A DNA stretch of 64,000 bases from Planctomycetota bacterium. GTDB taxonomy: Bacteria > Planctomycetota > PLA2 > JAEUHO01. Of this stretch, positions 4,525 through 33,379 are shown one piece after another (within the stretch, counting starts at the first letter, position 1; every line of letters begins with the position of its first letter). The translations under genes and the position numbers were made by a program. The DNA is taken from contig CAXQZU010000036.1 in the NCBI GenBank assembly GCA_964228555.1, forward strand, positions 39,867 to 103,866. Reading direction: 5' to 3'. The notes beneath the pieces were generated by a model. The model had not been told where the DNA came from, searched no databases, and saw only the letters and a program-made list of their open reading frames with translations.

Positions 4525-7278
<2,754 letters not shown>

Positions 7279-9055: not shown

Positions 9056-11362
9056 GTGCTGCGCGCCCGGCCCGCCTCCACCCTGCCGCTGGTGGCCCTG
9101 CTGGGCCTGCTGCTGGCGGGCCCGCCGCCGCGTGCAGAGGGCGATGCCGGCGAGGGCCCCTCGCGCGGCGCCGCACCGATGGACAACCCGTCGCACGTGC
9201 ACGACGACGATCCCGGCGTGCGCGAGGCCTTCGAGCGTGCCGGCCAGGCCGAGCGCGAGGGCCGCCACGACGAGGCCGCCGAGCGCCTGCAGTCCATCGT
9301 GGACCAGCGTTTCGTCGACGCGGCGCAACGTGAGTGCGTGCCCTCCGTGACGGCCGTGGAGGGCCGCTCCACCTACGAGGGGGCGTGGCGGGTGGCACGC
9401 CACCGTCTGGCCGGCGGCTCGCCCGCCCTGCGCGCGGCCTACGCGCGGCGCTTCGGCGCGCCGGCGCGCGAGCTGCTCGCGCGGGCCGTGGCGGCGCTGG
9501 ATCGGGACCTGCTGGCCGAGGTGGCCCGGCGCTTCCTGCCCCTGGAGGAGGGTCGCGCCGCCGCGCTGGCGCTGGCCGACCTCGCGCTCGAGCAAGGCGA
9601 CCTCGACGGGGCACTGCATCGCGTGGAAGCCCTGGAGGACCTGGAGGAAGTGGCCGTCGAGGAGGACGCTGCCCGGCTGGAGAGCTGGCGTGCGGCGCGC
9701 ATCGCGCGCGAGGCGCGGGCCCTGGCCCGCAGCCCGGCCGAGGTGGGCGAGGTGGAGCGACACCTGCTGGAGGCAGCGCGGCAGGGACCGGGCGCGGCCT
9801 CGCGACACGAGCGGGTGCCCGACGCCCTGCGGCGGGCGCCCGTCCGTCCCTCCACCTGGCCCACCACCGGCGGGCTGCCCTCGCGCGCGGGCGCCGCGCC
9901 GGCGCTGGCGGGCAGCCTGCGGCCCGTGGCCTCCGTGGCGCTGCAGCCCGACGCCGAGGAGCGTGCGCTCGCGCGCGAGATGGAGCCGGCGCGCCCGGAC
10001 CGCCCCAGCCCGTGGGTGACGCCGCGGGTCGTGGTGGGCCGCGACACGGTGTTCTGCTTCGACGGCGAGCTGCTCTCGGCCTTCGGCCGCGCGGACGGCC
10101 GCCTGCGCCATCGCGTGCGCGTGCGCGGCGAGGGCGAGGCGCGCCCGGCCCTGGGGCAGGACCCCCGCGAGGAGCTGCCGCTGCTGGAAGGGCACTGCCT
10201 CACGCTGGAGGAGGTGCCCGGGCGCGCCGCCCGCATCTACATCGCCAGCGCCACCCGCACCCTGCGCGCGCTGCGGCGCGAGGCCTCGGCCTTCGGCAGC
10301 GCCGCCGCCGCCGAGCCGCCGTGGGGCGAGGTGCTGATGGTGCGCTGGGACGGCGAGCGCCTGCTCAAGGGATGGCGCGCCAGCGGCTTCGGCAGCCAGC
10401 CGCGCCTGCCGCAGGGCCTCTCCGTGTTCGGCGCTCCCTGCCTGCACATGGGCCTCGCATGGGTCGCGGGGGTGCGGCCCAGCCAGGCCACCAGCGACGA
10501 GGTGGAGTGCTGGCTCGTGGGCCTCGAGCCCGGCACGGGCGAGCCGCAGCGCCTCGTGCGCCTGGGCAGCGGCAGCCCCTGGCGGCTCAAGCGCCTCGAC
10601 GAGGCCATCCCCTCCTCGCCCGCCGCCGCCCATGGCCGCGTGGTGGTGGCCACCTCGCTGGGCTGGGTGGCCGCGGTGGACGCCGAGGACGGGCGCGTGG
10701 CGTGGATCCAGCGCTACGACCGCACGCGCGAGACCGGTCGGCTCACGCGCCTCAACGCCATGGAGGCCGACCTCACGCCGCGCGTCACGGGCTTCGCCAA
10801 CGAGCCGCCGCTGCTGGCCTTCGGGCTCGTGGTGGTGGCCCCCACCGACAGCCACCAGCTGCTGGGGCTGGCCACCCGCCCGCGCGGCCCCGGCCGCCAC
10901 CTCGTGCGCTGGGACCCGCGCGACCGCCGCAACCACTTCGACCGCATGGCCGTGGAAGCGCTGGTGGGTGCGGCCGGCGGCGACGGCGAGGTGCCCCCCA
11001 CCATCGTGGCCACCGGCAAGGGCGATGCCGGCGAGGGCGAGCCGCCCGGGCGCGTGGTGTGCGGGCTGGACCCGGCCACGGGCGCCACGCGCTGGAGCGT
11101 GGCAGCGGCCACCGGCCACCAGCCCAGCACCTGGGGCCGCGCGGCCCTCTGCGCCGACCGCGCCTGGGTGCCCACGCTGCATGGGCTGCTGGCCGTGGAC
11201 CTGCGCCGGGGTCGGGCCGAGGGCCTGCTGGGGCGCGACCTGCTGCCGCCGGGACAGGCCGAGCCCGAGTCGCGCTGGTACGGCTCGCTGGTGCCGCTGC
11301 CGGGCGAGGGCCTGGTGGCCGTGCACGAGGGCCACATCACCTTCTGGCGCGTGGCCCGCTAG
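9056..11362 (+). CDS. Secreted PQQ-like / BamB-like beta-propeller repeat protein (768 aa)
   Basis: Signal peptide MLRARPASTLPLVALLGLLLAGPPPRAEG. Repeated segments of the form ...G.V.A.D...G...W match PQQ-type propeller blades (RVVVATSLGWVAAVDAEDGRVAW; VVCGLDPATGATRWS). The composition is not that of a spurious ORF. Confidence 0.65.
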   Translation: MLRARPASTLPLVALLGLLLAGPPPRAEGDAGEGPSRGAAPMDNPSHVHDDDPGVREAFERAGQAEREGRHDEAAERLQSIVDQRFVDAAQRECVPSVTAVEGRSTYEGAWRVARHRLAGGSPALRAAYARRFGAPARELLARAVAALDRDLLAEVARRFLPLEEGRAAALALADLALEQGDLDGALHRVEALEDLEEVAVEEDAARLESWRAARIAREARALARSPAEVGEVERHLLEAARQGPGAASRHERVPDALRRAPVRPSTWPTTGGLPSRAGAAPALAGSLRPVASVALQPDAEERALAREMEPARPDRPSPWVTPRVVVGRDTVFCFDGELLSAFGRADGRLRHRVRVRGEGEARPALGQDPREELPLLEGHCLTLEEVPGRAARIYIASATRTLRALRREASAFGSAAAAEPPWGEVLMVRWDGERLLKGWRASGFGSQPRLPQGLSVFGAPCLHMGLAWVAGVRPSQATSDEVECWLVGLEPGTGEPQRLVRLGSGSPWRLKRLDEAIPSSPAAAHGRVVVATSLGWVAAVDAEDGRVAWIQRYDRTRETGRLTRLNAMEADLTPRVTGFANEPPLLAFGLVVVAPTDSHQLLGLATRPRGPGRHLVRWDPRDRRNHFDRMAVEALVGAAGGDGEVPPTIVATGKGDAGEGEPPGRVVCGLDPATGATRWSVAAATGHQPSTWGRAALCADRAWVPTLHGLLAVDLRRGRAEGLLGRDLLPPGQAEPESRWYGSLVPLPGEGLVAVHEGHITFWRVAR

Positions 11363-11470
11363 GCCACGCACGGCCCGGGCGGGCGCGAGTCCCCCGCCGC
11401 CCCGCTGCGTGGTCTAATGCGGCCCCGGTCCGGGCGAGCGCCCGCCGGCCCTCCCGGAGCCCCGCGGCCC

Positions 11471-12538
<1,068 letters not shown>

Positions 12539-13433
12539 CCCGCTCGACCCCGAGGTCCTCGAGCGGCTCTCGGGGCTGGAGCTCAAGGCGCGCGCAATCG
12601 TCGAGGGCACGATCTCGGGCCTGCACCGCAGCCCGTTCCGCGGCTTCTCGGTGGAGTTCGCCGAGCACCGCGAGTACGTGCCCGGCGACGACATCCGCTT
12701 CCTCGACTGGAAGGTGTTCGGCAAGACCGATCGCCTCTACCTGAAGCGCTACGAGGAGGAGACCAACCTCGAGGCCACGCTGCTGGTGGACACCAGCGCC
12801 TCGATGGGCTTCGCCCGTGCCGACGGCGGCGGCGTGAGCAAGCTGGCCTACGCCCGGCTGGGCGCCGCCGCGCTGGCCTACCTCATCGCACAGCAGCAGG
12901 ACGCGGCCGGCCTCGTGCTCTTCGACAGCGAGCTGCGCGCGCAGCTGCCTGCCCGCACGGGACCGGCGCACGTGCGCGAGCTGTTCCAGCGCCTCGAGGC
13001 CGCGCGGCCCGCAGGCACCACCGGCGTGGGCCGCGCGCTGCTGGAGGCCAGCGAGGCCGTGCGCCGCCGCGGCGTGGTCGTGCTCTTCAGCGACCTGCTC
13101 GACGACCCCCGCGAGGTGCTGCGCGGGCTGCGCCACCTGCGCCAGCGCGGGCACGACGTGCTGCTGTTCCACGTGCTGGCCCACGAGGAGGTGGCGTTCC
13201 CCTTCACGCGCATGTCGCGCTTCGAGGGCCTGGAGGACGCCTCGCGGCTGGTGGCCGACCCCGTGTCGCTGCGCACGGCCTACCTCGCCGAGCTCGAGGG
13301 CTTCCGGCGCATGCTGCGGCGGGCCTGCCTCGCCAACCGCATCGACCTCGTGGAGCTGGACACCTCGCAGCAGCTGGCCGTGGTGCTGGCCGCCTACCTC
13401 GCGCAGCGCGCGGCCCGGCGCAAGGCCTAGCGC

Positions 13434-15830
13434 ATGGCCTCCCCGACGCTCGCCTACCTGTGGAACGGCTGGGGCCTCGTGGCGCTGGGCGGTGCCCTCA
13501 CGGCGGTGCCCATCGTCATCCACCTGCTCAACCGCCGGCGCGTGCGGGTGGTGCCGTGGGCGGCGATGACCTTCCTGCGCGCGGCGCTCAAGCGCAACCA
13601 GCGGCGCCTGCAGCTGGAGAACTGGCTGGTGCTGGCGCTGCGCGTCCTGGCGGTGGCCTTGCTGGGCCTCGCGCTGGCGCGCCCGGTGGTCACCGACAGC
13701 GCGCTGGCGGGGCTCGCCGGCCAGCGGCGCAGCCTCTACCTGCTGCTGGACACCAGCGCGAGCGTCGGCGCCCGGCGCGAGGCGCGCTCGGTGCTGGATG
13801 CGCTCAAGGCCGAGGCGGCGCAGGCGCTGGAGGCACTCGACGGGCAGGACACCTTCTGCGTGGTGCTCACCAACGACCCGCGCGTGGACGCCGCCTCGGG
13901 GCGGGCGCCCGCCGTGCTGGTGCCCCGCACCAGCGGCAGCACGGCCCTGTCCAAGGCCAAGGAGTCGGTGGCCGCGCTGGCCACCCGCGAGGCCCCGGCT
14001 GCGTGGGCCGATGCGTGGGCCCTGCTGGCGCAGCAGTTCGCCAACGAGGACGCGGGCCGGCAGGTCGTGGTCGTCACCGACCTGACCGCGCGCGACCACG
14101 TGCTGGGCGCGGCCCGCGACCGCACCGGCGAGGCGCTGCGCGCCCTCGTGCGCCGCGGCGCGCGCATCACCTACGTGGACGTGGGTGGCGCCGCCGACAG
14201 CCGTCACAACCTCGCGGTCAGCGCGGTGGAGCTGCGCGGCGACCGGCCGGCCTTCCCCGGGCGCGGGCTGTCCCTGGGCGTGCGCGTGGCCAACCACGGT
14301 CCCGACGAGGTGCGCGGCGCGCTGGTCACCGTGATCGTGGAGGACGAGCGCGGCGAGGCGTGGCGCAAGCGGCGGGTGGCTCCGCCACTGCCCGCCGTCG
14401 ACCCGCTCACGGGCGCGCCCGGCGTGGCCGTGGTGGACGTGGATGCCCCGGCCGGCACCTTCCGCGCGCCGGGCGCCTTCCACGTGCGTGCCAGCATCGA
14501 CCCGCCCGCGACGCAGCCCGGCGCGGATGCGCTGGCGCTGGACAGCACGCGCTGGGCGGCGCTGGACGTGCGCGACCGCGTGCGCGTGCTGGCGTGGACG
14601 CGTGCCAGCCAGGGCGCGCGCCAGGTGCCACTGTCGCTGCTGCGGCCCATCTTCGATCCCGTGCCGCAGGAGGGCACGACCGGCGCCTCGCCCGCGCCGC
14701 CCGCCTTCGAGTTCTCGCACGCGGACAGCGAGTCCACCTTCGCGGCGCGCCTGGCCGCCTCCACCGGCCGGCCCGACCTCGTCGTGCTGGCCAACACGGC
14801 CCCGCGCACGGCCTCCACCATGGCCGCGCTGCGCCAGCACGTGCTCGATGGCGGTGGCCTGCTGGCCTTCATGGGCGACGCCATCGACCCGGCGATGTGG
14901 AAGGAGCCTCCCGGCATGGCCGAGGAGGCCGCCGGCCCGCTGCTGCCCGTGGCGCTGGAGCCCGCCAGCGTGCCCGCCCGCAACGCGGGCGACCCCGCGC
15001 CCTACCGCCTCGACCTCGCCACGCCCAGCGACGAGCCGTGGGCGCGTGCCTTCAGCGGGCCCGAGGTGGCGCTGTGGCTGGGCCGCTTCCCGCCTGACGT
15101 GCTGGGCCGGCTGGCGCTGGCCGAGCCCGCTGCGCCGCAGGCCAGCGGCCCGCGCGCGGCGCGCGTGGTGCTGCGCTGGGTGGAGGGTCGCGGGCCCGCG
15201 ATGGTCGAGGGGCGCCTGGGCCTGGGCCGCACGCTCTGGGTGGGCACGAGCGCCGACGAGGGCTGGCTGCGCCTGGGCGTGCCCTTCTTCCTGCCCGTGT
15301 TCCTCGACGAGGCGGCCTTCCACCTCGTGCAAGGCGAGTCCACGCCACGCTCGCTGCTCGTGGGCGATGCGCTCGAGGCGGTGCTGCCGCGCGGCGCAGA
15401 GGGCGAGCGGCTCGAGGGCCCGGGAGGCCGGGATGCCTCGCTGCGCCTGCTGTCGGCAGAGACCGCCGCCGCCCGCCGCCGCGTGGCCTGCGAGGTGACC
15501 GGCACCGTCGGCGCGTGGAGGCTCACGTCCCGCGTGGACGGCAGCCGCACTGCGACGGCGTGGCACGCGGTCAACGTGGATCCCGACGAGGGCTCGCTGC
15601 TGCGCGCCGACCCCCAGGCGGTGGTGGCCAGCGCCGGCCCCGAGGCGCCCGTGGAGGTGGTCACCAGCCTGCGGGCGATGGCGACCACGACGCAGGAGGT
15701 GCGCGAGGGGGAGCTGGCGCGCGTGCTGCTGGCCATCGTGCTCGGCCTGCTGCTGGCCGAGTCCCTGCTGGCCCACCTGCTGGGCCGTCGTGCGCGCGCC
15801 GCCGAGGGCGGCCCGGGGAGCGCGGCATGA
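13434..15830 (+). CDS. BatA-like membrane protein with an N-terminal double-TM domain (798 aa)
   Basis: MASPTLAYLWNGWGLVALGGALTAVPIVIHLLNRRR...WLVLALRVLAVALLGLALARP...LLLDTSASVG. The N-terminal two-TM aerotolerance-like domain and a C-terminal TM (VLLAIVLGLLLAESLL). Confidence 0.75.
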   Translation: MASPTLAYLWNGWGLVALGGALTAVPIVIHLLNRRRVRVVPWAAMTFLRAALKRNQRRLQLENWLVLALRVLAVALLGLALARPVVTDSALAGLAGQRRSLYLLLDTSASVGARREARSVLDALKAEAAQALEALDGQDTFCVVLTNDPRVDAASGRAPAVLVPRTSGSTALSKAKESVAALATREAPAAWADAWALLAQQFANEDAGRQVVVVTDLTARDHVLGAARDRTGEALRALVRRGARITYVDVGGAADSRHNLAVSAVELRGDRPAFPGRGLSLGVRVANHGPDEVRGALVTVIVEDERGEAWRKRRVAPPLPAVDPLTGAPGVAVVDVDAPAGTFRAPGAFHVRASIDPPATQPGADALALDSTRWAALDVRDRVRVLAWTRASQGARQVPLSLLRPIFDPVPQEGTTGASPAPPAFEFSHADSESTFAARLAASTGRPDLVVLANTAPRTASTMAALRQHVLDGGGLLAFMGDAIDPAMWKEPPGMAEEAAGPLLPVALEPASVPARNAGDPAPYRLDLATPSDEPWARAFSGPEVALWLGRFPPDVLGRLALAEPAAPQASGPRAARVVLRWVEGRGPAMVEGRLGLGRTLWVGTSADEGWLRLGVPFFLPVFLDEAAFHLVQGESTPRSLLVGDALEAVLPRGAEGERLEGPGGRDASLRLLSAETAAARRRVACEVTGTVGAWRLTSRVDGSRTATAWHAVNVDPDEGSLLRADPQAVVASAGPEAPVEVVTSLRAMATTTQEVREGELARVLLAIVLGLLLAESLLAHLLGRRARAAEGGPGSAA

Positions 15831-18604: not shown

Positions 18605-18682
18605 CGGCGGCGCGTGCCCGCGGGGGCGTCGGGCGCCCGGCGCGGGCACGGCGCTGCCCCGCGGCCGGGTAGAGTCCGGCCC

Positions 18683-23002: not shown

Positions 23003-23055
23003 GGCCGGCCGGACGGGCCGGGCCGCCCGCCCCGGCAGCGGATAGCATCCCGCCC

Positions 23056-24228
23056 ATGCGCCGGCTGGTTGCCTGCCTCCCCGTGCTGGCCGTGCTGGGG
23101 CTGCTGGCCTCGCTGGCGCGCGGCCCGGCGGGCGCCGACCAGCCGGCCCGCGGCCTCGTGACGCCGGCGGCCCGCGAGGCCATCGACAGGGGCCTCTCCT
23201 TCCTCGCCAGCCAGCAGCACACCGATGGCTCGTGGAAGAGCAACGCGGGCAAGAAGATCAACGAGGGCTACCGCATCTTCGAGGGCGGGCGCGACGTGCC
23301 GCACGTGGGCGTGACCTCGCTGGCCGTGCTGGCCTACCTCGCCGGCGGCCACGTGCCCGGGCGCGGCCCCTACGGCGAGGTCGTGGAGCGGGCCGTGCGA
23401 TTCCTCGTCGAGCAGGGGGATCCCGGCAGCGGGATGATCGCGGCCCACGGCACGCGCATGTACAGCCACGCCTTCGCCACGCTGGCCCTGGCGGAGGTGT
23501 ACGGCATGTCGCCGCAGCCTCGCGTGCGGCGCGTGCTGGAGGCCGCCGTGGACTTCACGGTGCGCTGCCAGAACGAGACCGGGGGCTGGCGCTACGTGCC
23601 CTTCACGGCCGACAGCGACATGAGCGTGACGGTGTGCCAGGTCGTGGCCCTGCGTGCGGCCCGCAACGTGGGCTTCAAGGTGCCGCAGGCCACCATCGAC
23701 CGCGCCATCGGCTACGTGCTGCGCAGCGCCTACACCGGCGCCGAGGCGCGCGGCGGCTTCCGCTACCAGCCGGAGGAGATCCGCTGGAACCGTGACTCCT
23801 TCTCGCTGGCGGCGGCCGGGCTGACGACCCTGTTCCAGGCCGGGCTCTACGACAACGCGGCCATCGCGCGCTACGTCAAGGAGCACCGCATCCCGCAGTC
23901 GCCGCCACCGCGCATCGAGGACACCGTGCGCTACCTGCGCAACCAGTTCTCCGACGTGCCCAACGACCACTTCTTCTTCTGGTACGGCTCGTACTACGCG
24001 ACGCAGGCCTTCTACCTCGTGGGCGGCAGCAACCCGCAGGAGTGGTCCGGCTGGTACACGGCCGTGCGCGACCGCATCCTGGCCACGCAGCGAGAGGCCC
24101 GCCTGCCCGGCGGCCAGCGCGGCGCCCACTGGGTCAGCAACGTGGACGACAGCCACGCCTATGCCACGGCCACCGCCCTGCTGATCCTGCAGTTCCCGCT
24201 GGACTACCTGCCCATCCACCAGCGCTGA
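23056..24228 (+). CDS. Secreted prenyltransferase/squalene-oxidase-repeat (terpene-cyclase-like alpha/alpha-toroid) protein
   Basis: Sec signal MRRLVACLPVLAVLGLLASLARG. Repeats of the QxxxGxW type (SQQHTDGSWKS; QNETGGWRY; ...GGFRYQP). No DxDD motif. Confidence 0.7.
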   Translation: MRRLVACLPVLAVLGLLASLARGPAGADQPARGLVTPAAREAIDRGLSFLASQQHTDGSWKSNAGKKINEGYRIFEGGRDVPHVGVTSLAVLAYLAGGHVPGRGPYGEVVERAVRFLVEQGDPGSGMIAAHGTRMYSHAFATLALAEVYGMSPQPRVRRVLEAAVDFTVRCQNETGGWRYVPFTADSDMSVTVCQVVALRAARNVGFKVPQATIDRAIGYVLRSAYTGAEARGGFRYQPEEIRWNRDSFSLAAAGLTTLFQAGLYDNAAIARYVKEHRIPQSPPPRIEDTVRYLRNQFSDVPNDHFFFWYGSYYATQAFYLVGGSNPQEWSGWYTAVRDRILATQREARLPGGQRGAHWVSNVDDSHAYATATALLILQFPLDYLPIHQR

Positions 24229-24256
24229 GCCCGGGCCGCGGCCGCACTCCGGGCCG

Positions 24257-26854
24257 GTGGCGCCCGGGGGCCGCCTGCGGGCTGGCGCCCCGGTAGGCTG
24301 GACCCATGGGGCCCGCGCCGGGCCCCGCCCGAGGTGCAGCCTGGCCGCCCCGTCCCCCACGCTCGAGCTGCGCCGCAGCCTTGCCGCCCAGCGGGCCCGC
24401 ATCCGCGCCGGGCTGGCGCTGGCCGGGCTGGCGCGGGTGGCGCTGGCCGCCGTGCTGGCGCTGGGCGCCTTCTACCTCGCCGACCGGGGGCTGGACCTCC
24501 CGCTGGCGCTGCGCGCGTTCGTGCGGCTGGGTTGCCTCGGCCTGCAAGACCGCCTCCCCCTGCCGGCCTGGCTGCCGCTGGTGCTGGCCAGCGCGGTGGT
24601 GGCCTTCTACCTCGTGCGCGGCCGGCGGGCGGGCGCCCCGCTGGCGGGATTTGCCTTCGGGGGCCTTGCCGGGCTGCTGGCCGCGCTGGCGGTGCGCTGG
24701 CTGGCCCCGGTGGGCGTGCGGCTCGAGGACGCCGAGCTCGCCGCGGCCGTCGAGCAGCGGCGGCCGGGGCTCGGCGACCGGCTGGCCAGCGCGCTGGACT
24801 TCGAGGCCGAGCTGGCCCGCGAGGCCGCGGGCCAGGGACGTGGCGAGAGCCGGGCGATGATGCAGGCGCTGCTGGACGAGGCGCGGGTCACCGCGCGCGG
24901 CGCGTCGTGCGCTCAGCTGGCCAGCGGTCGCGTGCCGCTGGCGTGGCTGGGCACCCTGGCCCTGGCGCTGGGCGCGGCCGTCGTGGCCGTGGCGCTGGAC
25001 CCGGAGCAAGCCCGGCTCTTCGCCCGGCGCTCGCTGGCGCTGGAGGACCTGCCCTGGCCGCGCGCCACCACCCTGTGGGCGGTGCGGCTGGAGGCGGACG
25101 GCCGCGTGACGCGCTGGGATCCCCAGCAGCCCTTCGAGGTGGCCGTGGGCCGCACGCTCGTCGTGCACGCCGAGGCCGAGGGCGAGCCCGTGGAGGACGC
25201 CCAGCTGCTCGACCTCGCCGATGGCCAGCAGCCCCTGCCGCGGCGCATGTTCCCCGTGACCGGCCGCACCGGCATCTACGCCGTCGAGCTGGTGAACGTG
25301 CGGCAGGGCTTCGGCTTCGTGCTGCAAGGCGGCGACGACACGGACGACACGCCCGTGTACCGCGTCGAGGCCACCGTGGCCCCCGCGCTGGTGGACGTGG
25401 CCGCCGACCTCGTGTTCCCGCCCTACCTCGGCCGCGAGCCTGCGCGCGTGCTGTCCGGCAGCCTCGAGGTGCCGCAGGGCACGCAGGTGACGCTGACCCT
25501 CGTGCCCAGCGAGCCGCTGGAGTCGCTGCGCGGGGTGCTGGGCGAGGAGGCGCGCGAAGCCGAGCGCATCACGGCCGACGGCGGCGGCGAGGCCTGGCGC
25601 GTGTCGCTGGTGGCGGAGCGCAGCCTGCGCTGGCGCGCCGCGCTGCGCTCGCCGCAGGGGCGCGAGAACGACCCGGGGCAGGACGCCTACGAGATCGTGG
25701 TGCGCCCCGACGCCGCGCCCAAGGTGGCGTGGGCCTGGCCCCGTGGCGTGACGGAGGTGACGCCCGCGGGCCGCGTGCCCCTGCTGGTGGCGCTCACCGA
25801 CGACCATGCCGTGGCGTCGGCCACGCTCGAGCTGCGCGTGGGCGCCGACGGTGCCCTGCAGGCCCTGCGCCTGCAGGCCATGGAGGGCGAGGGCCCGGTG
25901 CTGCCGCGCGGCGAGCCCGGCCAGCGCACGCTGGCGGCCCTCGACGGCCCCGACGGGCGGGCGGGCGTCATGGCCTACGTGCCGCTGGAGCTGGGCTGGC
26001 TGGGCGAGGGTGCGCCGCTGCCCGTGCCGTCCACCGTGCAGGTGCGCGTGGTGGCCACCGACACCCGCGGCCAGCGAGCCGAGGGCGCCTGGCAGGTGCT
26101 GGAGGTCTATGCCCCCGCCGAGGTGGAGCGCCTGCTGTCCACGCGGCGCTCCGGCGTGCGCAGCGCCGTGGCGGCCCTCGAGTCCGAGCAGGCCGCCCGG
26201 CTCGCCCAGGTGGTGGAGCTGCAGCGCGGGGCGCTGGAGGCCGGCGACCTCGACCTGCTCAAGACCGTGCAGTTCGCGCAGTCCAAGCTGGCCCAGCACA
26301 CCGACCGCGCGGTGCGGGACTACCTCGACGTGTTCGCCAGCTTCGTGCTGGACCGGCTGGGCGCGCAGAACCCCAACGAGCGCATCCTGTCCATGATCGA
26401 CCGGGCGCACCGCGGCGTGGCCCAGCGCGGCACGGCGGCGCTGCGCGACGACGCGGCCTTCCCCTACGCCCTGTTCGAGGAGGTGGTGGCCGCCTGGCGT
26501 GGCCGCACGCTCATCGACACGGCACTGCTCGAGCGCATGCTGGCCGTGCTCGCGGCGGCGCTGGAGGCCACGCAGCGCACCGCACCCGCAGCCCAGGAGG
26601 CCGCGCAGCAGGCCGCGCAGCAGGCCGGGCCGGGAGCTGCCGCCGGGGTGCTGGCCCCGCTCGAGCAGGCCCAGCGCGCCCACCTCGCCGCCCTGCGCCA
26701 GCTGGCCGAGGCGCTCTCCTCGTGGGAGAGCCTCAACGACGTGATCGTGCGCCTCAAGCGCATCGTCGAGGAGCAGCGCGCGCTGCTCGAGCGACTCGAT
26801 GCCGAGGGGCGTGCACAGCCTGGCAGGCCTGCGCCTGCACCCGGAGCCCGTTGA
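24257..26854 (+). CDS. Hypothetical multi-TM protein with a large extracytoplasmic domain and a C-terminal helical region (865 aa)
   Basis: N-terminal TM helices (LALAGLARVALAAVLALGAFYL; WLPLVLASAVVAFYLV; FAFGGLAGLLAALAV; LAWLGTLALALGAAVVAVAL). Balanced composition with W/Y/F/Q/K, unlike spurious GC ORFs. The stop is 2 nt before the next gene's ATG. Confidence 0.65.
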   Translation: MAPGGRLRAGAPVGWTHGARAGPRPRCSLAAPSPTLELRRSLAAQRARIRAGLALAGLARVALAAVLALGAFYLADRGLDLPLALRAFVRLGCLGLQDRLPLPAWLPLVLASAVVAFYLVRGRRAGAPLAGFAFGGLAGLLAALAVRWLAPVGVRLEDAELAAAVEQRRPGLGDRLASALDFEAELAREAAGQGRGESRAMMQALLDEARVTARGASCAQLASGRVPLAWLGTLALALGAAVVAVALDPEQARLFARRSLALEDLPWPRATTLWAVRLEADGRVTRWDPQQPFEVAVGRTLVVHAEAEGEPVEDAQLLDLADGQQPLPRRMFPVTGRTGIYAVELVNVRQGFGFVLQGGDDTDDTPVYRVEATVAPALVDVAADLVFPPYLGREPARVLSGSLEVPQGTQVTLTLVPSEPLESLRGVLGEEAREAERITADGGGEAWRVSLVAERSLRWRAALRSPQGRENDPGQDAYEIVVRPDAAPKVAWAWPRGVTEVTPAGRVPLLVALTDDHAVASATLELRVGADGALQALRLQAMEGEGPVLPRGEPGQRTLAALDGPDGRAGVMAYVPLELGWLGEGAPLPVPSTVQVRVVATDTRGQRAEGAWQVLEVYAPAEVERLLSTRRSGVRSAVAALESEQAARLAQVVELQRGALEAGDLDLLKTVQFAQSKLAQHTDRAVRDYLDVFASFVLDRLGAQNPNERILSMIDRAHRGVAQRGTAALRDDAAFPYALFEEVVAAWRGRTLIDTALLERMLAVLAAALEATQRTAPAAQEAAQQAAQQAGPGAAAGVLAPLEQAQRAHLAALRQLAEALSSWESLNDVIVRLKRIVEEQRALLERLDAEGRAQPGRPAPAPGAR

Positions 26855-26856
26855 CC

Positions 26857-29800
26857 ATGCCCTCCCGAACCCAGCCCGATGCCTCCCGCCCGGCCAAGGC
26901 GCCGCGCGTGCTCCTCGCCACGCTGGCGCTGGTGGCTGCGCTGGCGCCGTGGGCCCCGGCCGCGCGCGCCGAGGACGCCGACCGCGAGGCCCGCGTGCAG
27001 GCCCGGCGTCGCGAGCAGGAGGCGATCCGCGAGAAGACCGAGGCGCTCACGGCCAGCATGCGCTCCCTGCGCGAGTCGCTGGAGCGGGAGGGCAGCGCCT
27101 ACGAGGTGGAGATCCTCTCCCGGGCGCTGCAGCACCTCGAGGGCGCCAACCTCGCGGCCGGCATCCAGGCCGCCCTGCAGGCGCTGGAGGGCACGCGCGA
27201 CGTGTCGCAGGTGGCGCGCGAGCAGGTCTCGCGCGTGCTGGCCGACCTCGAGGGCCTGCTCGAGATCCTCGAGGACCGCAAGCGCGAGGTGACGCGCGAC
27301 CAGATCGAGCAGCGGCTGGAGGCGGCCAAGGAGGCGCTGGAGGCCACGCAGCAGCTGCGCCGCGAGCAGGAGCAGGTGGCGCGCGCCATCGAGCAGGCCC
27401 AGCAGCAGGCACGCACCGAGGCGGCCCGGCAGGCCGAGGCACTGTCACGCGAAGCGGCCGCCCTGCGCGCGGAGCAGCAGCGCCTGCGTGAGGAGGCTGC
27501 GCGCGACGCCGGCGAGCAGGCGCGCGCCGAGCGTGCCATGGCAGAGAACCTGCTGGCGCGCCAGCGGGAAGCGCTGGAGCGCCTGCGGGCCGCACGCCGT
27601 GCCGAGGGCGAGCAGGCGCGCGCCGCGGCGCAGGAGGCCCGGCGCCTCGCGGAGGAGGAGCGCGCTGCGGCGGCTCAGGCCAGCGGCGACGGGGTGCGCG
27701 AGGCCCTGCGGCAGGCCGTGGGCGACGCCGCGGCACAGGCCGCGCGCGCAGCCGCCGCGGCGCGCACGCAGGCGGCCGCCGAGGCTGCGGTGGAGGCGGC
27801 CCGCGAGGCCGGCCGCGCCGCGCAAGCGCAGGCGCGGGCCGCGGGGGGTGGCGCCGATGCGGCACAGGCGGCCGACGAGGCGCGCGAGGCCGGCGAGCGA
27901 GCGCGCAGCGCCGCCACGCGCGCACAGCGGATGGCCCGCGAGGCCGCCGGGGCGAAGGGGGCCGAGCGCGCCACGGCAGAGGCCGCCCAGCGCCTCGCCG
28001 AGCAGGCCGGGCCGCTGGCGGCGGGTGAGGCAGGCGCCGCCAGCCCGCAGCGCCGCGAGGCGCTGGAGCAGGCGGCCGCAGCCGCCGCGCAGGCCTCGGC
28101 GGCTGCGGCCCAGCAGGCCGAGTCCGCCGCCGCCGCAGCGCGGGCGGCCGCGCAGGCACTGGAATCGCTGGAGCGGGCCGGGATGGCCGAAGGGGGCGCT
28201 CAGGCTGGCGCCTCCGCCGAGGCCGGGCGGCAGGCTGCGCAGCGTGCCCGTGCGGCCCTCGAAGAGGGCGCGGGCCAGCTGGAGCAGGCGGCCCGCGACA
28301 TGCAGCCCGGCACGGCGGCTGGCGCCCGCCCTGCCGGGGCGGACCGCGCAGAGGCCGGCCGGGAGCGGCTGGAGGCGGCCGCGGAGGCGCTGGGCGCCGC
28401 GGTGGCTGCCGGGTCCTCCTCCACGCCGCAGGACCGGGCGCAGCAGGCGGCCGCGGAACGCCAGCGTGCGCAGGCCGCCCAAGGGCTGGCCCGCCAGGCC
28501 GCGCAGGCGGCGCAGGCGGTGGGCGAGGCAGGCAGCGGCGAGCGCGCCGCGGCTGAGCAGGCGGCTCGCGAGGCCAGTGCGCAGGCCGAGGCGGCCGCGC
28601 GCGCCATGGAGCAGGCGGCCTCGGCCCTGGCCGGGGGCCGGCCGGGCGAGGCGGCGGGCCAGCAGGCCGAGGCCGCCGAGCACCTCGACCGCGCCGCCCG
28701 CATGCTGGGCGGCGAGGCAGGTGCGTCCGGGCTGGCCGAGGAGCAGGGCATGCTCGCGCGCGGTGCGGAGTCGCTGGCCCAGCGGCTCGAGCAGCAGGCG
28801 GGCGGCCAGGCCGGCACCGCACAGCCCGGCGCGCAGGCTGCCGAGGCTGCGCGCCAGCAGGCAGCCGGGGCGGCCCGCGAGGCCGCGCGCCACCTGGAGC
28901 AGGCCCAGCAGGCACTCCAGCAGGGTCGTGGCGGCGAGGCGGCTGCCGCCGAGGAGCAGGCCGTGCAAGCCCTGGAGCAGGCCCGCGAGGGCCTGGCCGC
29001 GCGCGAGCGCGACCTGGCCGCCGCACGCGAGCAGCGCGAGCAGGCGCTGGCCGAGGCCCAGCGCCGGCTGGTGGCCAAGGCCAAGGAACTGGAAGAGCGC
29101 GCCCGGCAGCTCGCGCCCTCCTCGCCCGAGGCGCAGCAGCAGGCCGAGCGCGCACGCGAGGCGCTGCAGCAGGCCGCGCGCGCCATGGAGCAGGCGGCGC
29201 AGCAGGCCTCCGGGGGCCAGTCCCAGCAGGCCGCCGGCTCGCAGCAGCAGGCCGAGCAGTCCCTGTCCGAGGCCCAGCGCCAGCTGCAGCAGGGCGCCCG
29301 CGAGACCGAGCGCACGCCTGCACTCGAGCAGCAGCTCAAGGAGCTGTCCGAGCGGCAGGAGCGCCTGCGCGAGCGCATGAAGCAGCTGGAAGACCTGCTG
29401 GCCAAGACCGAGAACGAGGCAGCGCAGGAGGCCGGGCGGCGTGCGCGGCGCGCGATGGAGGCCACCGAGGACAGCCTCGAGCAGGGCCAGGCCCAGCGCA
29501 GCCGCCAGCAGGCCGAGGAGGCGCGCGAGTACCTCGAGCAGGCCGAGCAGGCCCTCGACGAGGAGCGCCGGCGCTACCAGAGCCTGGAGCAGGAAGAGAT
29601 GCTGTTCCAGCTGGTGAAGGACCTGAAGGCCGCGCGCGAGGCCCAGGCCGCGCTGCGCAAGGAGAGCGAGGAGGTCGTGGCCGAGGCGCAGCGCCTGCGC
29701 GACGAGGGTGGCCGGCTCTCGCGTGCGCGCCGCAAGCGCACGAAGGAGATGGCCGCCGAGGAGCAGGCGCTGGCCGGCACGCTCGACGAGCGCCGGCAGG

Positions 29801-30273
29801 CCGTCGAGAAGGAAGACTCGGCGGCCTTCGCCGCCAGCCTCGCCGAGGCGGTGGAGGACGTGCGCGAGGCCGCGCGCCAGCTCGAGCAGCCCGACGAGCT
29901 CGGCCCGCTGCTGCTGGCCGTTCAAGACGCCGTGCTGCAGCGCCTCGACGACCTCGTGGGCGGCTTCGAGGACGAGCTGGAGCGCCGCCAGCAGGAGGAC
30001 CCCCAGCAGCAACAGCGCGATCGCCAGCAGGAGCAGCAGCCGCAGCAGGAGCGCCTCGTGCCCTTCGAGGTGGAGCTCAAGCTGCTGCGCCGCCAGCAGG
30101 TGGACCTCAACCTGCGCGTGCAGCGCTTCTTCGAGCGCACGCCCGGCCTCTCCGAGGGCCGGGTGGGCGAGGCCGAGCGGCGCATGCTCGAGCGCCTCTA
30201 CCACCAGCAGGGCCGCATCAAGCGCGTGCTGGAGGACCTGGTCGAGAAGACGCTGGGAGGGCAGGGCGGATAG
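26857..30273 (+). CDS. Secreted 1138-aa Ala/Glu/Gln/Arg-rich coiled-coil protein
   Basis: Signal peptide MPSRTQPDASRPAKAPRVLLATLALVAALAPWAPAARAEDA, followed by about 1100 aa of heptad-like, charged, A/E/Q/R-dominated sequence (for example EQARAAAQEARRLAEEERAAAAQ) and ending in a less biased C-terminal about 120 aa (LVPFEVELKLLRRQQVDLNLRVQRFFERTPGL...). It is in frame with, and directly follows, the upstream membrane-protein gene. Confidence 0.7.
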   Translation: MPSRTQPDASRPAKAPRVLLATLALVAALAPWAPAARAEDADREARVQARRREQEAIREKTEALTASMRSLRESLEREGSAYEVEILSRALQHLEGANLAAGIQAALQALEGTRDVSQVAREQVSRVLADLEGLLEILEDRKREVTRDQIEQRLEAAKEALEATQQLRREQEQVARAIEQAQQQARTEAARQAEALSREAAALRAEQQRLREEAARDAGEQARAERAMAENLLARQREALERLRAARRAEGEQARAAAQEARRLAEEERAAAAQASGDGVREALRQAVGDAAAQAARAAAAARTQAAAEAAVEAAREAGRAAQAQARAAGGGADAAQAADEAREAGERARSAATRAQRMAREAAGAKGAERATAEAAQRLAEQAGPLAAGEAGAASPQRREALEQAAAAAAQASAAAAQQAESAAAAARAAAQALESLERAGMAEGGAQAGASAEAGRQAAQRARAALEEGAGQLEQAARDMQPGTAAGARPAGADRAEAGRERLEAAAEALGAAVAAGSSSTPQDRAQQAAAERQRAQAAQGLARQAAQAAQAVGEAGSGERAAAEQAAREASAQAEAAARAMEQAASALAGGRPGEAAGQQAEAAEHLDRAARMLGGEAGASGLAEEQGMLARGAESLAQRLEQQAGGQAGTAQPGAQAAEAARQQAAGAAREAARHLEQAQQALQQGRGGEAAAAEEQAVQALEQAREGLAARERDLAAAREQREQALAEAQRRLVAKAKELEERARQLAPSSPEAQQQAERAREALQQAARAMEQAAQQASGGQSQQAAGSQQQAEQSLSEAQRQLQQGARETERTPALEQQLKELSERQERLRERMKQLEDLLAKTENEAAQEAGRRARRAMEATEDSLEQGQAQRSRQQAEEAREYLEQAEQALDEERRRYQSLEQEEMLFQLVKDLKAAREAQAALRKESEEVVAEAQRLRDEGGRLSRARRKRTKEMAAEEQALAGTLDERRQAVEKEDSAAFAASLAEAVEDVREAARQLEQPDELGPLLLAVQDAVLQRLDDLVGGFEDELERRQQEDPQQQQRDRQQEQQPQQERLVPFEVELKLLRRQQVDLNLRVQRFFERTPGLSEGRVGEAERRMLERLYHQQGRIKRVLEDLVEKTLGGQGG

Positions 30274-30336
30274 CCCGCTGCCCTTCCGCCCCCCCGCCGT
30301 TCGCCGCTACCATCCACCCAGCCCGCAGGACGCCCC

Positions 30337-31179
30337 ATGCGCCTCTACCCGCTCGCCCTCACCCTCCTCGCGCTGCTGCTGCCCGCCGTGCCCCTGCGCG
30401 CCGAGGAGCCGGGCGACCTCGAGCGCAAGCTCAAGGAGCAGATGGAGAAGGTGCTGCGCCTGATGCGCGAGAACGAGGAGGCACTCCTGCGTGCCAGCCA
30501 GCAGGGAGGCGCGGCTCCCAAGGGTCCCGACATCCCCATCCCCCCCCTGCCGCCGGCCCCCGGCGGGCAGGGCGGGCCTGGTGGCGCGCCGCAGGGCGGC
30601 GGGTCGCAGGGTGGCGGGGCGCAGGGTGGCGGCCAGGCAGGAAGCGGCGCAGGCACGTCGGGCGAGGGCGCCCGGGTGGCCCTCGAGGAGATCCTCAAGG
30701 TGCTGCGCGAGGGTGGCGGCGCCATCCCCGGCGAGATCGAGAGCCTGATGCGCATGCTGCCGGAGCAAGAAGGCGGCGGCGGCGGCGGGCAGGGCTCCTC
30801 CTCGCGCAAGCCGGGCTCGCGAGGTGGCCCGCAGACGCCCGAGGCCCGCGAGGCGCAGCGCCAGCGCGAGCTGGAGGAGCAGGCTCGCAAGCAGCACGAG
30901 GAGCAGCAGCGGCAGGCGGGCGGCACGCCCCCGCAGGGCCCCAAGCCCCCGCAGGACCCCGCGGGCCAGGCCGCGCGCGACGGACAGCCCCCGCCCAAGG
31001 AAAGCGACCCGAAGGTGGACCCGTGGTTCGCCTCGCTGCCGCCCGAGATCCGGGAGTTCTGGGCAGGCGGCGGCCTGGAGCGGCTGCCGGCGCGGGTGCG
31101 CAAGATCCTCGAGGACTACCAGCGCAGCCTCGATGCCGAGACGCGCCGCGCGGGCACGACGGGCCCCGCCGCCCGCTAG
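30337..31179 (+). CDS. Secreted low-complexity Gly/Gln/Pro/Glu-rich protein (280 aa)
   Basis: Signal peptide MRLYPLALTLLALLLPAVPLRAEEP. Contains K/E/M/W/F residues that spurious GC ORFs rarely carry. GGQGGPGGAPQGGGSQGGG tract. C-terminal DPWFASLPPEIREFWAGGGLERLP. Confidence 0.55.
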   Translation: MRLYPLALTLLALLLPAVPLRAEEPGDLERKLKEQMEKVLRLMRENEEALLRASQQGGAAPKGPDIPIPPLPPAPGGQGGPGGAPQGGGSQGGGAQGGGQAGSGAGTSGEGARVALEEILKVLREGGGAIPGEIESLMRMLPEQEGGGGGGQGSSSRKPGSRGGPQTPEAREAQRQRELEEQARKQHEEQQRQAGGTPPQGPKPPQDPAGQAARDGQPPPKESDPKVDPWFASLPPEIREFWAGGGLERLPARVRKILEDYQRSLDAETRRAGTTGPAAR

Positions 31180-31286
31180 GGCAGCACGGCAGCGCCCGCC
31201 GGGACTCCGCGCAGGCCCTGGAAGGAGCCTGGCCGCGCCGCCTGCCGGCGCTCCCCCACAGGCCGGGCGTACGATGGCACGCGCCG

Positions 31287-32435
31287 ATGGCCTCGCTCCC
31301 GCCCACCCGCCGCGACGTGCTGGGTGCCCGGCCCAGCGCGCTGGCGCTGGCCGCGCTGGCCCTGACGTCGTGGGCAGGCAGCGAGGAGCGGGCCCGCGCC
31401 AGCACAGCCGAGGACCCGGCACGCCGCGAGCGGCGCCGCCGGGCCATCGAGCGTGGCGCGTCCTGGCTGGCGGTCCAGCAGCGCACGGGCGGAGGCTTCG
31501 GCGACGACAAGGCCGTCGTGGCGCTCACCGCGCTGTCGGTGATGGCCCTGCAAGCGTCAGGCAGCGCCTACGGACGGGGCCCCCACGGCCTCGCCGTCAA
31601 GCGCGGCATCGACTTCCTGCTGCAGCTGGTGGAGACGCCCTCGACCGTGCAGTGGCACCCCGAGGGCTACTTCCACCATCCCGGCGACACCGACTCGCGC
31701 ATGCACGGGCAAGGCTATGCCGCACTCGCCCTGGCCACGGCACTGGGCATGGCGCCCGGTCCGCGCGCCGAGCGCTTGCGCAGCGCCGTGGCCAAGGCGG
31801 TGCGCTGCATGGAGGCGGCGCAGACCAGCACGGGCGGCTACGGCTACAGCCCCTCGCCGGACAACGACCACGAGGGCAGCGTCACCGTGTGCGTGGCGCA
31901 GGCCTTGCGCGCCGCGCGCGACGCCGGCCTCACGGTCAGCCAAGGCGTCGTGCTGCGCGGCCTCGAGTACCTGCGCAAGAGCCAGGTGGCCTCGGACGGG
32001 GCCTCCGACGGCGGCTTCACGTACAGCATCACGCACACCAAGCACACCTACGCGCTGACGGCCGCGGCCATCTCGTCCTTCTACCTGTTCGGGCGCTACA
32101 AGGACGACCCGCGCCGCACGCTGGACCGCGGCATGCGCTACATGCTGCGCGCCCTCGAGCGCGGTGCCGTGGACGAGGAGTGGTGGTACTACGGCCACTT
32201 CTATGGCGCCTGGGCCTTCTGGCAGCGCGACGGCGGCGACTGGTCCAGCGCCTCGATGTGGGGCCGCTGGGCTGCGCTGGTGCTGCCCGAGCTGGTCGGA
32301 GAGCGCCAGCGCAGCGACGGGTCGTGGGACGACCGCGCGAGCGGCAAGTTCCACTACGGGCCGGTGCTGAGCACGGCCTTCGCGGTGCTCACCCTGTCCA
32401 TCCCCGACGAGGCGCTGCCGGTGTTCCAGCGCTGA
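31287..32435 (+). CDS. Tat-secreted prenyltransferase/squalene-oxidase-repeat (alpha/alpha-toroid) protein
   Basis: Twin-arginine signal MASLPPTRRDVLGARPSALALAALALTSWAGS. Repeats QQRTGGGFG, QTSTGGYGYSP and ...DGGFTYS. Paralogous in architecture to 23056..24228. No DxDD. Confidence 0.7.
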   Translation: MASLPPTRRDVLGARPSALALAALALTSWAGSEERARASTAEDPARRERRRRAIERGASWLAVQQRTGGGFGDDKAVVALTALSVMALQASGSAYGRGPHGLAVKRGIDFLLQLVETPSTVQWHPEGYFHHPGDTDSRMHGQGYAALALATALGMAPGPRAERLRSAVAKAVRCMEAAQTSTGGYGYSPSPDNDHEGSVTVCVAQALRAARDAGLTVSQGVVLRGLEYLRKSQVASDGASDGGFTYSITHTKHTYALTAAAISSFYLFGRYKDDPRRTLDRGMRYMLRALERGAVDEEWWYYGHFYGAWAFWQRDGGDWSSASMWGRWAALVLPELVGERQRSDGSWDDRASGKFHYGPVLSTAFAVLTLSIPDEALPVFQR

Positions 32436-32451
32436 GGACCGGGGGCGGTCC
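32436..32451. terminator. GC-rich hairpin GGACCG-GGGG-CGGTCC between the convergent genes at 31287..32435 and 32474..33379
   Basis: Perfect 6-bp inverted repeat with a 4-nt loop immediately after the TGA at 32433-35. There is no U-tract, as expected in a high-GC genome. Confidence 0.35.
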
Positions 32452-32473: not shown

Positions 32474-33379
32474 CTAGCGCGGCGCGGGCAGGCCGCCCAG
32501 CCGCACGAGCCCGGGCGGCGGGGCGCGCAAGGGCTCCTGCAGGCTGCCGCTGCGATAGCCCTCGAGGTCCAGCGCCACGAAGGCGAACCCCTGCGCCTTG
32601 AGGGCGGCCACGGCGCGCTCGCGCAGGCCGGGCTCCAGCAGGCGGGGCAGGTCCTCCGCCGGCACCTCGATGCGTGCCACCGGGTCATGGACGCGCACGC
32701 GCACCGAGCGCAGCCCGAGGTCCTTGAGGGCCGGCTCGCAGGCCGCCACGCGCACGAGGCCCTCGGGCGTCACCTCGGTGCCGTGCGGGAACCGGCTGGA
32801 GAGGCAGGCCTCGGCGGGCTTGTCCCAGGTGGGCAGCCCGCGCTGGCGGCTCAGCTCGCGGACCAGGTCCTTGCCGATGCCGCACTCCAGCAGCGGCGAG
32901 CGCACGCCGTGCCGGAGGCCCGCAGCGTGGCCCGGCCGGTGGCCATCGAGGTCGTCGGCATTCGTGCCATCCAGCACCAGCGCGAGGCCCCGCTGGGCGG
33001 CCACCCTCGACAGCTCGCCGTAGAGCGCGTCCTTGCAGTGGAAGCAGCGGTCCGGCGCGTTGCGCCGGAAGGCCTCGAGGTCCAGCTCGCTCCCAGCCAG
33101 CACCTCGTGCTCCACGCCGGCCGCCTCGGCCTGCGCCCGCGCGGCGTCCAGCTCGCCGGGAGGCAGGCTCTCGGAGCGGCTGGTGACCGCCAGCAGGCGC
33201 TGGGGGCCGAGCACGCGGGCGCAGGCGTCCAGCAGGAAGGCACTGTCGGCGCCGCCACTGGCGGCAATCACGGCCCCGCCCTGTCCATGGCGCTGCAGCC
33301 ATGCGCACAGCCGTGCCTGTGCGTCGGCGGCGTCCGAGGCCCGGGCCGGTGCTGTACCGCCTGCCACCGTCATGCGCAC
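32474..33379 (-). CDS. PP-loop ATPase of the LarE / TIGR00268 family (ATP-dependent sacrificial sulfur transferase-like)
   Basis: AVIAASGGADSAFLLDA (SGGxDS PP-loop)...CFHCKDALYGEL...conserved Cys-rich core. The ORF starts at a GTG at 33379. An ATG two codons in (33373) is an alternative. Confidence 0.75.
   Translation of the reverse strand: MRMTVAGGTAPARASDAADAQARLCAWLQRHGQGGAVIAASGGADSAFLLDACARVLGPQRLLAVTSRSESLPPGELDAARAQAEAAGVEHEVLAGSELDLEAFRRNAPDRCFHCKDALYGELSRVAAQRGLALVLDGTNADDLDGHRPGHAAGLRHGVRSPLLECGIGKDLVRELSRQRGLPTWDKPAEACLSSRFPHGTEVTPEGLVRVAACEPALKDLGLRSVRVRVHDPVARIEVPAEDLPRLLEPGLRERAVAALKAQGFAFVALDLEGYRSGSLQEPLRAPPPGLVRLGGLPAPR

Follow-up and report, generated by a model that had tools for sequence, protein, structure and literature searches.

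A 64,000-nucleotide (nt) stretch of a Planctomycetota genome (GTDB lineage PLA2; JAEUHO01), corresponding to positions 39,867–103,866 of the forward strand of contig CAXQZU010000036.1 (assembly GCA_964228555.1) and hereafter called the window, carries an array of 11 plus-strand genes, g1–g11, at positions 9056–32435. The array joins a MoxR-type ATPase, a DUF58 protein and two membrane proteins with von Willebrand factor A (VWA) domains to genes for exported propeller, toroid and other envelope proteins. Because the G+C content of the window is 76%, long spurious open reading frames (ORFs) occur in all six frames; the gene map was derived from the phasing of third-position G+C (GC3) and inspection of start codons. 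By GC3 phasing, coding at 9056–32435 is uninterrupted and entirely on the plus strand, which upholds the co-directional array of the original prediction, made from the sequence alone. That prediction counted 12 genes; a separate TPR gene is absent, and TPR-like helices occur only in the N-terminal portions of the g1 and g6 proteins. The genes and associated features are as follows.

9056–11362, plus strand: g1, 768 amino acids (aa), secreted protein whose N-terminal portion is helical and TPR-like, with a beta-propeller of PQQ/BamB type
11417–12538, plus strand: g2, 373 aa, cytoplasmic MoxR-type AAA+ ATPase (AAA_3/MRP class); alternative start at 11471
12504–13430, plus strand: g3, 308 aa, DUF58 protein, VWA-like, no transmembrane (TM) segment
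13434–15830, plus strand: g4, 798 aa, BatA-type protein with an N-terminal double-TM anchor, a VWA domain and a C-terminal TM segment
15827–18604, plus strand: g5, 925 aa, second membrane VWA protein with two TM helices and a GATase1-like region
18683–23002, plus strand: g6, 1439 aa, secreted protein with TPR-like helices and two PQQ-like propeller regions
23056–24228, plus strand: g7, 390 aa, Sec-exported single-domain (alpha/alpha)6 toroid, terpene-cyclase-like
24229–24256, no strand: g7/g8 junction, 28 nt, the site of extracytoplasmic function (ECF) sigma factor and FecR genes in most relatives
24257–26854, plus strand: g8, 865 aa, membrane protein, putative N-terminal half of a split DUF4175-like protein
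26857–30273, plus strand: g9, 1138 aa, secreted helical protein rich in Ala, Glu, Arg and Gln, putative C-terminal half of the split DUF4175-like protein
30337–31179, plus strand: g10, 280 aa, small secreted Gly/Pro-rich protein with a conserved C-terminal motif
31287–32435, plus strand: g11, 382 aa, second toroid, paralog of g7, with a twin-arginine N-terminus
32436–32451, no strand: hairpin GGACCG-GGGG-CGGTCC with a 6-bp G+C stem, between the convergent g11 and a larE-like gene, without a T-tail

The cluster is real and widely conserved, and it is a variant of a known MoxR/Bat-type system, not a new kind of machine. From g1 to g11 the intergenic distances are 54, -35, 3, -4, 78, 53, 28, 2, 63 and 107 nt. 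Two of three overlaps reported earlier were found, namely those at 12504/12538 (35 nt) and 15827/15830 (4 nt, ATGA), while at 26854/26857 there is a 2-nt gap. An identical 35-nt g2/g3 overlap is called at the related locus L009, and the g4/g5 overlap is kept at L007 and on the P0016 contig (4 nt) and at L019 (1 nt). The lengths of g4–g11 listed above are identical to the deposited gene calls on contig JBJSYI010000067.1 of GCA_046089665.1, a Planctomycetia metagenome-assembled genome to which the window was matched by exact sequence, and the length of g3 agrees with the call there, which is clipped at the end of the locus. Genes g1 and g2 lie outside that comparison locus, and their boundaries rest on GC3 phasing and start inspection. 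Under random orientation, the probability of 11 co-oriented genes is about 2^-10; moreover, the gene order of the array was found again in many divergent genomes.

The Pfam searches suggested in the original prediction returned AAA_3, DUF58, the BatA anchor, PQQ_2 and weak toroid matches. The g2 protein matched AAA_3 (216 bits) and AAA_lid_2 (71.7 bits), with just 45.9 bits for bpMoxR, and its Walker A/P-loop reads GVPGLAKT. The g3 protein matched DUF58 (158.9 bits) and VWA_2 (40.5 bits). For g4, matches to the BatA N-terminal anchor (54.2 bits) and TIGR02226 (71.5 bits) were accompanied by a weak one to VWA_2 (19.2 bits), and g5 matched VWA at 24.0 bits (cut-off 23.8) and, weakly, GATase1_like at 19.7 bits (cut-off 27). 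A sequence search of PDB with g5, g7 and g11 gave marginal matches only; that of g5 was to the STM1381-like protein 3soz (E 0.0095). The metal ion-dependent adhesion site (MIDAS) motif DTSAS is present in g3, g4 and g5, and no Pfam propeller match was found in these three proteins. Hydropathy predicted TM helices in g4, g5 and g8. By their domain matches, genes g2–g5 are a MoxR–DUF58–BatA/VWA–VWA core of the Bat/Cmd type. The Bat-like core described earlier is confirmed for MoxR, DUF58 and the two TM-VWA proteins by the Pfam and TIGR02226 matches, and the stand-alone TPR protein assigned to it has to be dropped. By inspection, Sec-like N-termini occur in g1, g6, g7, g9 and g10, and together with the hydropathy data this agrees with the claim that nearly all products other than MoxR and DUF58 are exported or membrane-bound.

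The proteins encoded by g8, g9 and g10 had no Pfam match even at E 10 and none in NCBIfam. The g8 protein comprises TM helices, beta-sandwich domains and a helical bundle (AlphaFold2 model, predicted local distance difference test score 79.4). An exhaustive profile search defined its family as 13,199 cluster representatives, 8,592 of them at E < 1e-10, falling into two size classes of about 770 and about 1200 aa. The g8 profile retrieved relatives at E < 1e-76, and six of the 26 sampled among these matched DUF4175 (PF13779) in the beta-domain part of that profile (best E 1.3e-11); relative P0176 scored 30.1 bits at a cut-off of 27.3. The link of g8/g9 to DUF4175 is transitive and not direct. 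Profiles of the C- and N-terminal domains of g9 were built from eight orthologs. The C-terminal profile matched 40 of 47 long-form g8-family proteins at their C-termini, with E values down to 4e-37, and none of 104 short forms or of the shuffled controls. The N-terminal profile matched 26 long forms at approximately residues 740–960, directly after the g8-homologous part. Therefore, the long form corresponds to g8 and g9 in one chain. Genes g8 and g9, previously taken for unrelated cargo proteins, seem to encode a single DUF4175-like protein that is split here and whose second part, g9, gained a signal peptide. This split and the signal peptide of g9 point to a periplasmic location for the beta-sandwich and helical parts of g8. 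The tight g8/g9 junction recurs in relatives, at -4 to +2 nt, with 18 nt in L008. The composition of g9 is 27% Ala, 14% Glu, 13% Arg and 12% Gln.

Even at about 25% identity, all members of the g8/DUF4175-like family keep the GGDD motif of g8 (residues 358–361; 25328–25339), and a PPAYTG-type segment is almost unchanged. The GGDD region, which belongs to the beta-sandwich part, might bind metal or have a catalytic role. The g10 protein is a conserved small partner of the g8/g9 protein; its motif W..LPP..R...(L/I)P..Y...L is kept in L005, L006, L008, L017–L019 and the compact locus L013. Taken together, g8, g9 and g10 have the architecture of the DUF4175/TIGR02302 low-complexity membrane proteins of Alphaproteobacteria: N-terminal TM helices are followed by a long extracytoplasmic region, in which a beta-rich periplasmic portion precedes an extended helical one, and the sequence ends in a low-complexity tail. 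Both g9 and g10 are of low complexity. Unlike those proteins, the protein here consists of two chains, with an extra signal peptide on g9 and a g8 part lacking a PF13779 match. Of DUF4175, only the N-terminal part has been discussed, in Acinetobacter AdvA (PMC7481262).

Related loci (designated L, with numbers) were sampled through homologs of g8, g6 and g7, and their neighborhoods were reconstructed from gene calls and tblastn of all window proteins. A contig scan based on the g8 alignment relied on one peptide pattern and yielded only seven loci, and therefore understates the distribution. Two forms of the cluster were found. The compact form contains, in this order, a propeller gene, MoxR, DUF58, BatA and VWA genes, a gene for a g8-like protein of about 1200 aa and one for a secreted protein of about 240 aa; it is present on the P0016 contig and in L013–L016, from metagenome-assembled genomes (MAGs) of Planctomycetota and Pirellulales. 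The extended form, with the order seen in the window, was found whole or in part in L007, L009, L010, L011, L017, L018 and L019, with g8 identities from 80% to 38% where on record (L007, L009–L011). Three g7 orthologs on long contigs, chosen by identity alone (63, 58 and 49%), all lay inside the cluster. The neighborhood check proposed in the original prediction supported the linkage: 13 loci extend far enough upstream to be informative, and in 12 of them the g8-like gene is preceded by the MoxR/DUF58/BatA/VWA module; in L010, L018 and L019 the stretch covered contains only the BatA/VWA part of the module. Outside Planctomycetota, a tblastn comparison of a DUF4175-positive relative with annotated plasmids matched the 1.1-Mb replicon of the cultured Gemmatirosa kalamazoonensis (Gemmatimonadota). 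The gene order there is VWA, TPR protein, MoxR, DUF58, BatA (VWA plus GATase1-like) and a 1268-aa protein matching DUF4175 at 26 bits; therefore, the DUF4175-type protein is a recurrent partner of MoxR–BatA and not foreign cargo.

The conserved set consists of MoxR, DUF58, two VWA proteins, the DUF4175-like protein, g10 and the TPR-propeller g1. This contradicts the earlier description of the non-core genes as cargo foreign to the MoxR–VWA architecture, since g1, g8, g9 and g10 belong to the compact seven-gene form across Planctomycetota. A partial literature search returned no description of the extended planctomycete cluster or of the DUF4175 association, and searches on DUF1355/TIGR02226 and ECF groups found nothing relevant. 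With moderate confidence, we read the array as an expanded planctomycete form of a widespread, mechanistically unsolved envelope system.

Some relatives carry insertions or broken genes. At the module boundary, L018 contains an insertion (3065–5576) with a gene lacking Pfam matches and an AhpC-TSA/Redoxin gene, and L019 contains one (4107–4902) with two 23S_rRNA_IVP genes. The MoxR gene of L007 (2747–3786) and the g8-like genes of L015 and L016 (approximately 9100–12900) are broken in the same reading direction, and are probably frameshift errors of long-read MAGs and not pseudogenes.

Seven relatives, L005, L006 (identical to L012), L008, L009, L011, L018 and L019, have an ECF sigma gene immediately before g8, and in all seven it is followed by a FecR-domain gene. 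FecR was identified by tblastn, except in L008 (a weak Pfam match only) and in L018 and L019 (gene calls, with tblastn unmapped). The pair is located between g7 and g8 in L009, L011, L018 and L019, and in L007 a sigma gene is present about 1.1 kb upstream of g8. Five loci share the motif CCGAACC-N15-GGTTT at 40–75 nt before the sigma start codon, which we take to resemble ECF promoters. Neither a sigma nor a FecR gene was detected anywhere in the window by tblastn, and the window contains no plus-strand copy of the motif; the pair is also absent from L010 (g8 80% identical) and L017. The last four genes are probably under their own envelope-stress-type promoter in most relatives. Since most relatives have the pair and this genome has lost it, the unbroken array is derived: two units became fused at the g7/g8 boundary in this particular lineage. 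The single operon proposed originally is therefore partly sustained: the array is unbroken here, and the regulators before g8 in relatives weaken the one-operon reading, leaving the functional linkage intact. Scans for sigma-70 promoters and intrinsic terminators found none inside the array and are uninformative because of the 76% G+C content.

The array could also represent two independent systems that stand side by side and share no mechanism, namely a Bat/Cmd MoxR module (g1–g5, perhaps with g6–g7) and an ECF-sigma-controlled surface or periplasmic module (g8–g11), brought together by the accident of sigma/FecR loss. The sigma/FecR genes and the ECF-like motif before g8 in most relatives fit this explanation, as do the insertions of unrelated genes in L007, L018 and L019 and the arrangement of L008, where g6 stands beside g8–g11 with no MoxR module nearby. 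We nevertheless consider it unlikely. In the compact loci of several planctomycete lineages the g8/g9-like gene directly follows the VWA gene with no regulator between them; in Gemmatirosa it directly follows BatA; and the upstream module is present in all but one of the 13 informative loci.

The g1 protein matched PQQ_2 at 34.3 bits. Every locus with enough upstream DNA has, ahead of MoxR, a propeller gene that is homologous to g1 or equivalent to it in position; these loci are L007, L009, L013–L016 and the P0016 contig. The g6 protein matched PQQ_2 at 92 bits in four stretches; its homologs are 27–79% identical, several of them match TPR Pfam models in their N-terminal parts, and in L007, L009, L010 and L017–L019 the gene has the VWA gene on one side and g7/g8 on the other. 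Synteny of g6, g7 and g11 holds in each of the eight extended loci that have sufficient sequence. The double propeller g6 and the toroids g7 and g11 are additions, seen only in the sampled planctomycete loci.

The toroids g7 and g11 are paralogs (30% identity, E 2e-31) with weak prenyltransferase/squalene-cyclase matches, among them Prenyltrans at 29.6 bits for g11. They have the (alpha/alpha)6 toroid fold and QW-type repeats of class II terpene cyclases and lack the catalytic DxDD motif of these enzymes, no D.DD being found in either protein. The original prediction of toroids without DxDD, one exported by Sec (g7) and one by Tat (g11), agrees with inspection of the N-termini, which is Sec-like in g7 and twin-arginine in g11. 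The segment D186-S-D188-M-SVTVC of g7, located after a GGW motif, is nearly invariant, and g11 has DND. The profile alignment of g7 to squalene-hopene cyclase covers the QW-type repeats only, and DSDM is at most a candidate counterpart of the catalytic DxDD. The g7 family (n = 2117 homologs) is far better conserved than its neighbors; in L009, identity is 58% for g7 versus 35% for g6 and 42% for g8. The RR motif of g11 is kept in L005, L006 and L017 and not in L008 and L019. Both toroids end exactly in LP[IVLT][HF]Q[RKN], as LPIHQR in g7 (24208–24228) and LPVFQR in g11 (32415–32435), and this terminus is kept in all g7/g11 orthologs examined; it may be a docking or sorting peptide. The closest comparisons are the monodomain class II terpene-cyclase-like toroids 8paj and MstE (6sbb) and the exported Yersinia YPO2471 (7tem), from which g7 and g11 differ in lacking DxDD and in having Sec/Tat signal peptides and the conserved LPxFQR end. 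No isoprenoid pathway genes are located nearby.

In a periplasmic apparatus that handles glycans or cell wall polymers, the toroids, as (alpha/alpha)6 modules, would bind or cleave glycan and the propellers would be scaffolds, with the membrane complex tethering them for remodeling of envelope polysaccharides or polymer uptake. This is distinctly improbable, because the best fold and sequence matches of the toroids are terpene-cyclase/prenyltransferase-like, with QW-like repeats. In addition, no CAZy-type catalytic motif was identified, and the cluster contains no conserved glycan transport or glycosyl hydrolase genes.

MoxR–DUF58–BatA–VWA operons have been known since 1999 from the Bacteroides Bat operon (Tang et al., cited in PMC5700661) and occur in several phyla, with examples in Bacteroides, spirochaetes, Rhizobium and Francisella (PMC5700661, PMC3557215). 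The array shares with the Bat operons of Bacteroides fragilis, Leptospira (bat) and Borrelia (bb0170–bb0176) the AAA_3-type MoxR, DUF58, BatA-type VWA and TPR-containing partner proteins, as well as co-directional genes whose products are believed to form a membrane complex. As in the Bat operons, MoxR is at the head of the core, DUF58 adjoins it, and both membrane proteins have a VWA match and the MIDAS motif, g4 with the BatA anchor and g5 with two TM helices. Unlike the Bat operon, the partners here are TPR-propellers, a split DUF4175-like protein, a Gly/Pro-rich protein and two toroids, and relatives have an ECF sigma/FecR pair inside the cluster. The four-gene core of Rhizobium leguminosarum cmdA–D (RL3499–RL3502) has the order MoxR, DUF58 and two membrane proteins, as in g2–g5. 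The domain make-up of RL3501 and RL3502 is presumably the TIGR02226 double-TM anchor plus VWA. Unlike cmdA–D, the core here is surrounded by seven further conserved genes. A MoxR–DUF58–transglutaminase (YebA) system (PMC3495828) was considered and rejected, as there is no transglutaminase-like gene here.

Two functions proposed for such gene sets fit the array less well. A role in aerotolerance or oxidative stress, like that of the Bacteroides Bat operon, is very unlikely: MoxR, DUF58 and BatA-type genes are common to both and the L018 cluster contains the AhpC-TSA/Redoxin gene, but no BatD, SH3 or stand-alone TPR protein (BatC/BatE type) was detected among the 11 products with Pfam and NCBIfam, and no other sampled locus has a Redoxin/AhpC Pfam match. 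The MoxR–vWA–beta-propeller ternary conflict (immunity) systems of Kaur, Burroughs, Iyer and Aravind (2020) likewise act near the membrane with a MoxR, a VWA and a TPR-propeller protein and are known from planctomycetes (PMC7159879), and g2 has the weak bpMoxR match. This reading is scarcely credible and is contradicted by three defining features of those systems. The MoxR here belongs to another clade (AAA_3 at 216 bits versus bpMoxR at 45.9 bits, with the P-loop GVPGLAKT instead of GXXXTAKS, which is frequent in the bpMoxR clade), and the VWA proteins have no fused propeller. The proteins are conserved and syntenic instead of variable, and g1 and g6 consist of a signal peptide, TPR-like helices and a propeller with no obviously variable effector-like N-terminal region; moreover, DUF58 and BatA are hallmarks of housekeeping Bat/Cmd systems, and PADLOC found no match to g1–g8.

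A same-strand run of genes begins upstream of the array at 4525 with pyruvate, phosphate dikinase and continues with enolase and a small ORF to g1; the comparative data alone justify setting the start of the array at 9056. The enolase gene adjoining g1 (7349–8647, plus strand) has a counterpart next to g1 in L007 (1–279, minus strand), on the opposite strand, where g6 is only 33% identical. Downstream, the minus-strand gene at 32474–33379, convergent with g11, encodes a LarE-type ATP-dependent sacrificial sulfur transferase (TIGR00268, 282.6 bits, cut-off 150). A larE homolog lies directly after g11 in L005, L006, L017 (on the same strand as g11) and L019 and is a conserved neighbor. The hairpin at 32436–32451, earlier said to close the array, exists, but it is not demonstrated as a terminator because it lacks a T-tail and lies between convergent genes; the terminator consensus scan reported none at this position. 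An Rfam search of the window returned no match, and its tandem repeats are short low-complexity coding repeats only. At 28001–30000, within g9, the AT skew is extreme (0.37) and the GC skew positive, owing to the Ala/Glu/Arg/Gln-rich composition of g9 and short coding repeats. A 1544-codon ORF at 35959–40593 (plus strand), which would give EF-G an 850-residue N-terminal extension, was rejected as a stop-to-stop artefact, because GC3 phasing shows minus-strand coding at 36.6–38.25 kb and an EF-G start near 38.5 kb.

What is observed is the composition of the array, the conserved gene order, the relation between the split g8/g9 and the fused long form, and the sigma/FecR genes of relatives. For the expanded envelope system that we favor, we infer that the products most probably form a protein assembly in the periplasm that is anchored in the inner membrane and serviced by MoxR–DUF58; the ATP-driven machine building an extracytoplasmic structure, as originally proposed, can reasonably be inferred. 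By the positive-inside rule, the loop rich in Arg and Lys that joins the two N-terminal TM helices, in g4 as in g5, would be cytoplasmic, and therefore the VWA/MIDAS domains would be periplasmic, as in the BatA-type protein BB0173 of Borrelia, for which this location of the VWA domain was shown experimentally (PMC5700661). Proteins g4, g5 and g8 would form an inner-membrane platform on which acidic exported partners are held as a scaffold in the periplasm; these partners would be the Glu-rich g9 together with g10, the propellers and the toroids. MoxR–DUF58 may dock on its cytoplasmic face, with ATP driving assembly, remodeling or turnover, in the manner of other MoxR–VWA pairs, which act as chaperone and adaptor by binding a peptide through the MIDAS site and remodeling the client (PMC7159879). 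In most relatives the g8–g11 half would be switched on by its own envelope-sensing ECF sigma/FecR pair; here this switch is missing and the halves abut. The envelope integrity and cell morphology defects of Rhizobium cmdA–D mutants (cited in PMC5700661) fit the proposed mechanism.

Several points weigh against this interpretation. Signal peptides, TM helices and membrane topology were judged by eye and hydropathy. The g8 protein itself has no DUF4175 match, and its fold search returned generic helical bundles only. Periplasmic VWA domains leave the action of a cytoplasmic ATPase on them unexplained. The exceptional locus, L008, has sugar-metabolism genes upstream of the g8-like gene and no MoxR module within 10 kb, and in L007 three unrelated minus-strand genes (an ABC ATPase, a GntR regulator and a third gene; 14522–17890) separate g6 from g7. 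The internal sigma/FecR pair of relatives indicates that the two halves are perhaps separately regulated and partly independent. Finally, deletion of bat in Leptospira left growth rate and morphology unchanged (PMC3557215).

More speculatively, the extended cluster of 11 to 13 genes might encode a large planctomycete-only structure spanning the periplasm, such as a skeleton, a tether or a part of crateriform or pore-like complexes, with g9, the propellers and the toroids standing on a BatA/VWA/DUF4175 base, assembled by MoxR–DUF58 and controlled by ECF/FecR; we regard this as a long shot. If true, it would give the enigmatic Bat/MoxR–VWA operons a structural role. The recurrent neighbors of the module, namely the DUF4175-like protein, either fused or split, the Gly/Pro-rich partner and the TPR-propeller, are named candidates for clients or structural partners of the ATPase. 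The sigma/FecR pair and its promoter motif predict a regulon and an inducing envelope signal in planctomycetes. In addition, a genomic context is gained for DUF4175 and for the exported toroids of terpene-cyclase type, which in Planctomycetota make up a very large and well-conserved family.

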